A stretch of DNA of 64,000 nt from the NCBI RefSeq assembly GCF_044324875.1, contig NZ_CP172185.1. One strand, 5' to 3'. The notes under the pieces were generated by a model. The model was not told where the DNA came from. It saw only the letters and a list, made by a program, of their open reading frames with translations, and did no database searches. The position numbers and the translations under genes are program-made. Source of the stretch: Escherichia coli (GTDB taxonomy: Bacteria > Pseudomonadota > Gammaproteobacteria > Enterobacterales > Enterobacteriaceae). This document shows, piece after piece, positions 1-2,855 of the stretch (position 1 is its first letter; each line of letters begins with the position of its first letter).

Positions 1-2855
1 AGCAGGTGAGCCGTAATTATCATCTTCGCGGGCGCATTCTGCAGGTGCCGTCGAACTATAACCCGCAGACGCGGCAATACAGCGGTATCTGGGACGGAAC
101 GTTTAAACCGGCATACAGCGATAACCCGGCCTGGTGTCTGTGGGATATGCTGACCCACCCGCGCTACGGCATGGGGAAACGTGTTGGCGCAGCGGATGTG
201 GACAAATGGGCGCTGTATGTCATCGGCCAGTACTGCGACCAGTCGGTGCCGGACGGCTCTGGTGGCACGGAGCCGCGCATCACCTGTAATGCCTGGCTGA
301 CCACACAGCGTAAGGCGTGGGATGTGCTCAGTGATTTCTGCTCGGCGATGCGCTGTATGCCGGTATGGAACGGGCAGACGCTGACGTTCGTGCAGGACCG
401 GCCGTCGGATAAGGTGTGGACCTATAACCGCAGTAATGTGGTGATGCCGGATGATGGCGCGCCGTTCCGCTACAGCTTCAGCGCCCTGAAGGACCGCCAT
501 AATGCCGTTGAGGTGAACTGGAGTGACCCGGATAACGGCCAGGAGACGGCGACAGAGCTTGTGGAGGACACGCAGGCCATTGCCCGTTACGGTCGTAACG
601 TCACGAAGATGGATGCCTTTGGCTGTACCAGCCGGGGGCAGGCACACCGCGCCGGGCTGTGGCTGATTAAAACGGAGCTGCTGGAAACGCAGACCGTGGA
701 CTTCAGCGTGGGTGCTGAAGGGCTTCGCCATGTACCGGGCGATGTCATTGAAATCTGTGATGATGACTATGCCGGTATCAGCACCGGTGGTCGTGTGCTG
801 GCGGTGAACAGCCAGACCCGGACGCTGACGCTCGACCGTGAAATCACGCTGCCATCCTCCGGTACCACGCTGATAAGCCTGGTTGACGGAAGTGGCAATC
901 CGGTCAGCGTGGAGGTTCAGTCCGTCACTGACGGCGTGAAGGTAAAAGTGAGCCGGGTTCCTGACGGCGTTGCCGAGTACAGCGTGTGGGGGCTGAAGCT
1001 GCCGACGCTGCGCCAGCGCCTGTTCCGCTGCGTGAGTATCCGTGAGAACGACGACGGCACGTATGCCATCACCGCCGTGCAGCATGTACCGGAAAAAGAG
1101 GCCATCGTGGATAACGGGGCGCACTTTGACGGCGACCAGAGCGGCACGGTGAATGGTGTCACGCCGCCAGCGGTGCAGCACCTGACTGTCGAAGTCACCG
1201 CAGACAGCGGGGAGTATCAGGTACTGGCCCGCTGGGACACGCCGAAGGTGGTGAAAGGCGTGAGTTTCATGCTTCGCCTGACCGTGGCAGCGGATGACAG
1301 CAGTGAGCGGCTGGTCAGCACGGCCCGGACGACGGAAACCACATACCGCTTCAGGCAGCTGGCGCCGGGGAACTACAGGCTGACAGTCCGGGCAGTAAAT
1401 GCCCGGGGGCAGCAGGGAGACCCGGCGTCGGTATCGTTCCGGATTGCCGCACCGGCAGCGCCGTCGCGGATTGAGCTGACGCCGGGCTATTTTCAGATAA
1501 CCGCCACGCCGCATCTTGCGGTTTATGATCCGACGGTACAGTTTGAGTTCTGGTTTTCGGAAAAGCGGATTACCGATATCAGGCAGGTTGAAACCACAGC
1601 CCGTTATCTTGGTACCGGAAGTCAGTGGCTTGTCTCCGGCCAGAATATTAAACCTGGCCATGATTATTACTTTTATATCCGCAGTGTTAACACTGTCGGT
1701 AAATCGGCATTCGTGGAGGCAGTCGGTCGGGCGAGTAATGATCCTGCCGGTTACCTTAATTTTTTCAGGGGGGCGATAAATAAAACGCATCTGGGACGGG
1801 AGATCAATGAACGCATTGATGCCTCTGCACGGCGCACTGAAGTTGAGCAACTGGAGAATGCGATTAACCGCGAAATGACGCAGCTGGAGAATGCGATTAA
1901 CCGCGAAATGACGCAGCTGGAGAAAGATGTGAGGCAGCGTGCGGAGCGTGATATCGCAGAGGTGACGAAAAAAATCACGGCGTCTGAAAACAGCATAACG
2001 GAACTGGTGGCGAAAAAGAGCGGTGAACAGTCGCTGGCCATTGCGAAAGTCGACAGGAAAGTTGACAGCGTGAGCAGTGAAATCCGGCAGACAGTGAGCA
2101 GGAGCACGGAGGAGAACAGCCGACAGATAGCGCAGGTCAGGCAGTATGTTGATGATAAAAGTGCGCAAATAAGTACTGTTGTGGCGAAAAAGAGCGGTGA
2201 ACAGTCAATGGCCATTGCGGAAGTTGACAGAAAAGTTGACAGGATGGGCAGCGAAATCCGGCAGACAGTAAGCAGGAGCACGGAGGAGAACAGCCGACAG
2301 ATAGCGCAGATCAGACAGTATGTTGATGATAAGGGAAGTCAGATCACACAGAGCACGGATAAAAAACTGGGATCCTGGAATGCCAGCATTGAGCAGATAC
2401 AGAAAGTTCAGGAGGACACGCGCCGGAACCTGAACAGCATGTGGGCTGTGAAGCTGCAGCAGACACGGGATGGACGTCTCTATATTGCAGGTATTGGTGC
2501 CGGAATCGAAAATACGTCTGACGGAATTCAGAGTCAGATCCTGATGCAGGCAGATCGTATTGCGATGATTAACCCGGAAAATGGCAATACAACACCTTTG
2601 TTTGTGGCTCAGGGTGATCAGCTGTTCATGAATGATGTTTTCATGAAAAAACTGACCGTGGATTTTGCCAGAGTGACGGGAGATATCCGGTCAGATAATT
2701 TTCATTCCGGTAGTCCGGGGTGGCGTTTATCAAGAAACGGCAGCCTTGAAATTAACTCAGGAAGGCCCGGCGCAGGCCGCCTGTTTTTCAATGGCGAGCG
2801 AATCGACGTATATGACGATAACAATGTGTTAAGAGTACGACTGGGGAGACTGTAA
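1..2855 (+). CDS. Phage host specificity / tail tip protein J, 3' portion (5' end lies outside the window)
   Basis: Open frame runs from the window edge to a stop at 2855; 949 aa shown with fibronectin-III-like segments and the conserved C-terminal region of lambdoid J proteins; followed by the usual stf/tfa-type genes. Confidence 0.85.
1851..1916. repeat. 33-bp perfect tandem duplication inside J (encodes [11 protein letters not shown] twice)
   Basis: ctggagaatgcgattaaccgcgaaatgacgcag occurs twice back to back. Confidence 0.9.
2007..2354. repeat. 174-bp tandem duplication inside J (two 58-aa units VAKKSGEQS...)
   Basis: Two consecutive 58-aa units with about 85-90 percent identity are visible in the J translation. 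Confidence 0.85.

Follow-up and report, generated by a model that had tools for sequence, protein, structure and literature searches.

Tandem repeats of different age and variable copy number in the predicted helical stalk of a lambda-like prophage tail tip protein J

Introduction

Can the central tail fibre of a lambda-like phage change its length by tandem duplication within the J gene? The question is raised by a J gene at the start of the 64,000-nucleotide stretch of Escherichia coli DNA analysed here (contig NZ_CP172185.1, hereafter the window), the distal part of which was predicted to contain internal tandem duplications of 33 and 174 bp; we find both, in frame, in the distal half of J. 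Repeat-number variation via intragenic recombination alters the length of the streptococcal M protein, of trimeric autotransporter stalks and of phage collagen-like repeats. As set out below, the repeats in the window are likely to have arisen when the J stalk, an alpha-helical segment equivalent to an enlarged lambda AHS, was expanded in tandem and in frame by slippage or unequal recombination. The case is a well-resolved new example of an already known process, phage fibre length change.

Results

The repeats lie within a segment that lambda J lacks

The open reading frame at 6..2855 corresponds to the 3' two-thirds of gpJ, the tail tip or central tail fibre protein (3..2855, plus strand); the 5' end of the gene is outside the window. 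The Pfam domains Phage-tail_3, Ig_J, Ig_J_second and Phage_Tail_Tip are recognised, the solved structures of lambda gpJ are matched with E = 2e-80, and 99.9-100% identical E. coli prophages carry the annotation gpJ, with 3543 nt. The domain order is that of a lambda-like J, with the hub (Phage-tail_3) and two FN3/Ig_J domains (Pfam E = 1e-40 to 1e-43), then the AHS, and then the Phage_Tail_Tip beta domain (PF09327, E = 1.8e-34; 2388..2765, plus strand, aa 796-921), the equivalent of the lambda central straight fibre.

To locate the repeats relative to lambda gpJ, we aligned the protein to PDB entries 8iyk and 8xcj with phmmer. Residues 608 and 790 of the window protein both align with lambda residue 838, so that approximately 181 residues (1827..2369, plus strand) are without a lambda counterpart; the N-terminal flank of this segment aligns to lambda gpJ 731-838 and the C-terminal flank to 838-941. 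The lambda AHS (residues 809-861) is a bundle of three helices that lies below the FN3 domains and keeps the tip closed, and part of it (841-861) refolds into beta strands upon LamB binding (PMC11101478). Since the insertion at approximately residue 838 falls within 809-861, the alignment places the extra segment inside the AHS-equivalent bundle, at the border of its two parts. The lambda AHS is of the same family and occupies the same position, with conserved flanking helix sequences, but has nothing in place of the extra residues.

The 33-bp unit was doubled recently

The original prediction of a perfect 33-bp duplication is borne out. Two tandem copies of CTGGAGAATGCGATTAACCGCGAAATGACGCAG are present without a single mismatch (1851..1883 and 1884..1916, plus strand), followed by CTGGAGAA (1917..1924, plus strand), which forms the first 8 bp of a third unit. 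TRF reports this array at 1847-1924 with period 33, 2.4 copies and 97% matches. With a length that is a multiple of three, the unit is in frame in J and encodes an 11-residue unit that is present twice.

We found the stalk sequence in only 22 of 5426 complete E. coli genomes. Alleles were read at eleven prophage loci in nine of them and in four viral or metagenome contigs. Alleles are denoted by the copy numbers of the 33-bp and the 174-bp unit, in that order. State (2,2) is found in the window and in L001, L005 and L019, state (2,3) in L003 and L008, and state (1,2) in L002, L004, L006, L007, L009, L010, L015, L016 and L018. Among the host strains, B771 has a (1,2) prophage, TUM1886 a (2,2) prophage, and ECCNB12-2 and AR_0085 have (2,3) prophages. 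Alleles with one and two copies of the 33-bp unit differ by a clean gap with matching flanks, seen as exactly 33 bp in L002, L004, L006, L007, L009 and L010. An apparent mosaic junction at this repeat, where megablast matches start at query position 377, was rejected: the alignment shows identical upstream sequence, and the start at 377 results from the way BLAST treats the 33-bp gap.

Over 736 nt of unique flank, the window, L001, L003 and L007 are identical, although all three states occur among them. Changes in copy number have thus outpaced the accumulation of point substitutions. One or two copies of the 33-bp unit on identical unique flanks demonstrate that this duplication is recent, as had been predicted. 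The single-copy alleles also suggest how it arose. They read GCAACTGGAGAA...33 bp...GCAGCTGGAGAA, i.e., the 8-mer CTGGAGAA, found at 1851 and 1917 in the window, already forms a direct repeat spaced 33 bp apart before any duplication. The unit was doubled very recently between these two 8-mers, and slippage or unequal exchange between GCAACTGGAGAA and GCAGCTGGAGAA would yield exactly the observed 33-bp duplication.

Length polymorphism among related prophages is thus seen, as had been predicted, for both units, with one or two copies of the 33-bp unit and two, three or possibly one copy of the 174-bp unit. The expectation that such repeats are hotspots for slippage or recombination was right in spirit, in that the locus is a length-polymorphic hotspot of recombination with copy number varying on near-identical backgrounds. 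Phase variation can be ruled out because both units are divisible by three; the locus has neither a frame-shifting unit nor a promoter position, as a contingency locus would. Two marker sites distinguish L003 from L008, and their three-copy alleles may therefore be independent events. With three or four copy-number events in all, the sample is too small for a statistical test of selection for in-register units. Scans of viral and metagenome DNA for the 33-bp unit gave four contigs only, none with at least two copies. Comparison of the J stalk allele with side tail fibre length, for the few loci compared, revealed no pattern. Both three-copy alleles are located in prophages with an IS-disrupted side-fibre region, and may therefore drift without selection.

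Could the copy changes be real but neutral, occurring in decaying cryptic prophages without any effect on a working virion? Several loci would fit this view. L003 and L008 carry IS insertions within or next to the side tail fibre gene, the J gene of L004 is frameshifted, and that of L010 is cut by an IS66 element. However, the J reading frame is intact in all three length classes, (1,2), (2,2) and (2,3), and the TUM1886 prophage, which has a (2,2) allele, possesses a full set of head and tail genes. Moreover, every event preserves both the reading frame and the helical register, and the remodelled junction within the 174-bp repeat suggests past selection on a folded protein (both described below). 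We regard neutral decay as less likely than not.

The 174-bp pair is older and fixed, but the array is still active

The second repeat comprises units A (2007..2180) and B (2181..2354), both on the plus strand and detected by TRF (2007-2332, period 174, score 568) and unit alignment. Like the shorter unit, the 174-bp unit is a multiple of three and in frame, encoding a 58-residue unit that is present twice; unit A consists of two 29-residue sub-repeats. Units A and B differ at 12 of the first 152 nt (92% identity), and at 28 of 174 nt overall (84% identity). For repeats of 33 and 174 bp, these lengths make chance an implausible explanation.

The differences between A and B are distributed very unevenly. 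The core divergence of 7.9% consists of six synonymous and six non-synonymous changes, whereas 16 of the last 22 nt differ (Fisher p = 9e-11), so that the tail of A where it meets B (2159..2180, plus strand) is far more diverged than the rest. We considered whether this tail was copied from the tail of B or from the sequence upstream of A, but 14-17 of the 22 nt differ and neither fits. Since neither simple junction model fits at the DNA level, the A/B junction has been remodelled. The changes in the A tail remove a glycine and introduce valines, and may reflect a subsequent adjustment of the newly formed junction to an uninterrupted helix.

In contrast to the 33-bp unit, the description of the 174-bp duplication as recent does not hold. 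The cores are 8% diverged, and A and B show the same 28-30 differences in all relatives read that have two or three copies. The original prediction took homologues that uniformly carry the same repeats with equal divergence as the mark of an ancient fixed architecture; this mark is found for the A/B pair among close relatives, and not for the 33-bp unit. By that test the A/B pair, equally diverged in all two- and three-copy relatives, is a fixed feature of the clade. It is older than the 33-bp duplication, while the array itself is still active. L003 and L008 have as their middle copy a pure A unit with zero or one mismatch, consistent with an out-of-register crossover in the block of 26 nt at the 5' end of the units that is identical between A and B. 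A metagenome contig (L017, SKEW01005156.1) has a single 174-bp unit with an A-type 5' end and a B-type 3' end, possibly the expected deletion product or a repeat collapsed during metagenome assembly. Out-of-register recombination of the A/B pair thus generates the three-copy alleles and possibly the one-copy chimera.

How old, then, is the A/B pair? Homologues that bear on this are J proteins of the PhiR49_2 type (PV340570; P0005 cluster, 1362 member sequences), with 44% identity to PhiR49_2 by tblastn and 52-60% to the P0005 type. They belong to the same stalk family and share the 29-residue periodicity and the hydrophobic period of 3.625 with the window J. However, they have no 11-residue unit and only a single 58-residue unit, and where the window J has the T1-type end described below, they carry a long C-terminal domain. 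Compared with either A or B, the PhiR49_2 unit has 43-47 differences in 152 sites, whereas there are only 12 of 152 between A and B. Where A and B disagree, the PhiR49_2 unit has the A state at 9 sites and the B state at 10. Against this one outgroup, A and B are sisters, placing the duplication after the divergence from the closest other type of J, which carries one 58-residue unit. The 174-bp unit was accordingly duplicated earlier than the 33-bp unit, but after the split from the one-unit homologues. A large protein search with the stalk yielded mostly contig-end fragments and no full-length set, and was used only for the single-unit homologues.

These data also bear on the view that the repeats are an ancient, fixed architecture of old modules common to all homologues. 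The constancy of the A/B differences in all two- and three-copy alleles is what such an architecture would give, and an older 29-residue periodicity does underlie the stalk, also in distant homologues. Yet the 33-bp unit, present once or twice on identical flanks, refutes the idea for that unit. For the 174-bp unit, the single-unit homologues at 52-60% identity, the much closer relationship of A and B to each other than to the PhiR49_2 unit, and the near-perfect extra copy in the three-copy alleles make an ancient origin very unlikely. Stepwise tandem expansion remains the reading that we favour.

Both units fit a non-heptad helical period

The repeats are embedded in a predicted alpha-helical stalk of approximately 197 residues (1743..2333, plus strand), delineated from AF2 secondary structure and from the hydrophobic period. 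For the fragment 1683-2852, AF2 gave helices H21-33, H36-111 and H116-217, with beta strands after nt 2333. This was a monomer model built on an 11-sequence alignment with a mean pLDDT of 47; given the low confidence, only the secondary structure was used.

The sequence itself has a hydrophobic period that peaks at 3.65 residues, a value reached by 0 of 500 shuffles. The segment had been predicted to be a coiled coil, and it is indeed predicted to be helical and amphipathic. It is not a heptad coiled coil, since the hydrophobic power is 2.1 at 3.5 residues versus 135 at 3.625. Rather, the period and its continuous phase, which stays within approximately 50 degrees over about 150 residues and runs through both 58-residue copies, are those of a hendecad-type bundle (period approximately 3.63-3.67). 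A 29-residue sub-repeat is detectable in the stalk with z = 6.5 after collapsing the recent duplicates, and with z = 6.3 in the single-unit PhiR49_2 J. At a period of 3.625 residues, 11, 29 and 58 residues correspond to 3.03, 8.0 and 16.0 turns, respectively; being whole numbers of turns, the 11- and 58-residue duplications both keep the hydrophobic seam in register. Such duplications may persist precisely because both units are whole turns of the 3.63-residue repeat.

By analogy with lambda gpJ, the stalk would pack as a trimer. Each duplication would then lengthen the trimeric bundle, moving the fibre tip and any attached receptor-binding proteins away from the tail tube. For a rise of 0.15 nm per residue, the 33-bp step should add approximately 1.7 nm and the 174-bp step approximately 8.7 nm to a stalk of approximately 30 nm.

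If the segment were instead a flexible linker or a helical hairpin folded back on itself, the duplications would leave fibre reach unchanged. The low AF2 confidence would fit such a structure. In T1 gp33, the C-terminal region containing the equivalent segment was likewise too flexible to be resolved by cryo-EM, but the AF3 model of that protein protrudes approximately 370 Å (PMC11945409). The strong, phase-continuous amphipathic periodicity over approximately 180 residues argues against a linker or hairpin, as does the fact that the segment aligns on its two sides to the AHS helix of lambda, a solved three-helix bundle. We consider this structure improbable, and an extended stalk much the better description.

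The stalk is followed by a T1-like C-terminus

The segment had been placed just upstream of a C-terminal receptor-binding part, but this is not what we find. The stalk leads into the Phage_Tail_Tip domain and then into a short T1-like end. The alignment to lambda stops at approximately residue 941 and J ends about 55 residues later, so the lambda-type receptor-binding domain (about 980-1132) is missing, a further difference from lambda gpJ. The C-terminus (2650..2852, plus strand), ending in ...LRVRLGRL, is of the T1 gp33/HK022 type, with the GW...GRL signature, as judged from alignments to 9l9p_S and to the J proteins of HK106, PhiR41_1 and LF82-19; phmmer aligns query residues 19-350 to T1 853-1168 of 1172.

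The genes downstream agree with this assignment, since two small ORFs and cor would be expected next to a J of the T1 gp33/HK022 gp24 type. Directly 3' of J are two overlapping ORFs of 86 and 220 residues (2855..3777, plus strand; phrog_557 and phrog_425), of which the first (2855-3115) matches HK022p24 (E = 0.008) and the second (3115-3777) HK022p25 (E = 9e-9). They are followed by a Cor-like lipoprotein gene (3799..4044, plus strand; phrog_1119), matching Cor with E = 2e-8 and 30% identical to HK106 Cor. In all three cases the homology is distant. HK106 has the same order of J, two small ORFs and cor. Such downstream ORFs have been proposed as tip-bound receptor binders in a modelling study (PMC12309495), and the two ORFs are candidates for separate receptor-binding proteins. 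Receptor binding is thus probably a task of the downstream ORFs rather than of J itself.

T1 gp33 (PDB 9l9p; PMC11945409) and the HK022/HK106-type J proteins resemble the window J in having a long helical stalk, internal tandem repeats, a Phage_Tail_Tip domain and a short C-terminus ending in GRL, but are only 27-31% identical to it. The repeat units also differ. The window J has units of 11, 29 and 58 residues, whereas those of the PhiR41_1 J (1534 aa) are 33 residues (z = 16) and that of T1 gp33, seen by eye in the alignment, is approximately 33 residues. In the literature that we searched on T1 gp33 and HK022-type J, no copy-number polymorphism is described, and searches on tandem duplication in central tail fibres and on hendecad repeats in phage tails returned nothing specific.

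In L004, L009, L010 and L017 the stalk is joined to a different, long C-terminal module, with the junction at approximately nt 2647 in a conserved FMNDVF motif. Joined to different C-terminal modules, the stalk behaves as an exchangeable spacer module.

Discussion

The central question was whether the repeats in the window reflect growth of the J fibre. Taken together, the clean in-frame copy differences on identical flanks, the sister relationship of units A and B and the match of both units to the helical period favour tandem expansion of the helical stalk, in at least two steps of different age. Tandem repeats collapse easily and many database J proteins are contig-end fragments, but a sequencing or assembly artefact is extremely unlikely, because the two-copy state of the 33-bp unit occurs in four independent complete genomes and complete genomes of independent origin, from Japan, France, China, Switzerland and the Czech Republic, share the same alleles.

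What the window J has in common with M protein, trimeric autotransporter adhesins and phage collagen-like fibres is that tandem repeats lie in frame within an elongated protein of the coiled-coil or triple-helix kind. Those proteins, however, belong to other families, and the units of the window J are tied to a non-heptad period of 3.63 residues in a tail-tip bundle.

The length of the segment at lambda residue 838 varies from 0 residues in lambda and approximately 101 in the PhiR49_2 type to 123, 181 and 239 residues in this lineage. One might speculate that this position is a general growth point at which J stalks are lengthened stepwise, with copy number under ongoing selection that tunes the reach of the tip, although we think this broader proposal unlikely as it stands. 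If true, copy number would set how far the tip extends, whether across O-antigen or capsule or in relation to the side fibres, and single slippage events would shift host range or triggering. O-antigen shields outer-membrane receptors from J-mediated binding (PMC12312913), making the tuning of reach a reasonable hypothesis for how length changes could affect adsorption or host range.

On the practical side, repeats of this kind are sites where short-read assembly and J gene annotation err, and stalk length becomes a design variable for engineered phages. If length matters for reach through O-antigen, the otherwise identical natural alleles would constitute a ready series with steps of approximately 1.7 nm and 8.7 nm. 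The locus further lets one follow, in dated steps, how the central fibre of a siphophage may grow by register-preserving duplications inside a helix bundle.

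Divergence between the duplicated units of the J stalk

The two 174-bp units of the stalk differ most at their junction. Over the final 22 nt of unit A (window 2159-2180), 16 positions are mismatched with unit B, compared with 12 of 152 over the remainder of the unit. When this tail was compared with the B tail and with the sequence 5' of A, it matched neither. Either the A/B junction has been remodelled since the duplication, or it carries a patch from an unknown allele. Unit A also contains a 12-bp tandem repeat (GAAAGTCGACAG GAAAGTTGACAG; window 2045-2068), which codes for KVDRKVDS and has a counterpart in unit B; this repeat is an older, smaller internal duplication.

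Window 2346-2440 (residues approximately 782-812) is predicted by AF2, with low confidence, to form beta strands. This stretch is the homologue of residues 838-861 of lambda J, a helix that reportedly turns into beta strands once the receptor is bound (PMC11101478).

One stalk with two alternative C-termini

A mosaic breakpoint lies at window ~2647, inside the conserved FMNDVF(M/L)K motif (related J loci L004, L009, L010 and L017). The same repeat-bearing stalk is followed either by a short T1-type end plus two small ORFs or by a long PhiR49_2-type C-terminal domain. In the window, the small ORFs occupy 2855-3115 and 3115-3777 on the plus strand; the ATG of the first overlaps the J stop codon, and an ATGA overlap joins it to the second. 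They match phrog_557 and phrog_425, respectively, and are distant relatives of HK022p24 and HK022p25; neither has a Pfam match. As the J of the window has no receptor-binding domain of the lambda type, both are candidates for separate receptor-binding proteins.

Downstream, on the same strand, an ORF at 3799-4044 encodes an 81-aa lipoprotein (MKIIVCTFLLFLVSGCAG...) with a match to phrog_1119. The predicted product resembles the Cor superinfection-exclusion protein, aligning with Cor of phage HK106 at 30% identity (E = 2e-8). RefSeq leaves this ORF unannotated in the identical prophages L001 and L019, where a gap separates the 663-nt ORF from the tail fibre gene. That gene (4117-5445, plus strand) encodes a collagen-like side tail fibre and contains a 45-bp tandem array (G-X-Y x5; 4582-5172). 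The fibre has 442 aa in the window and 457 aa in strain TUM1886, and among other relatives it measures 529-616 aa; the 45-bp array is thus length-polymorphic as well.

Related stalks and coresident J alleles

Phage PhiR41_1 (PV340561) has a J of 1,534 aa whose C-terminus is very similar to that of the window J and whose long stalk is an array of 33-aa tandem repeats (autocorrelation z = 16). Most of the proteins that a database search matched to the stalk are incomplete sequences at contig ends, suggesting that short-read assemblies routinely break within J genes.

Some cells harbour two J genes. Two prophages of TUM1886 (NZ_CP128970; L001 and L019), whose identity to the window is 99.9% and 100%, share the allele (2,2), giving the 33-bp and 174-bp copy numbers in that order. 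Two prophages of strain ECCNB12-2 (NZ_CP033635), at L003 and a second place, have unlike J alleles, (2,3) and (1,2). Homologous J copies within one cell could serve as partners for recombination.
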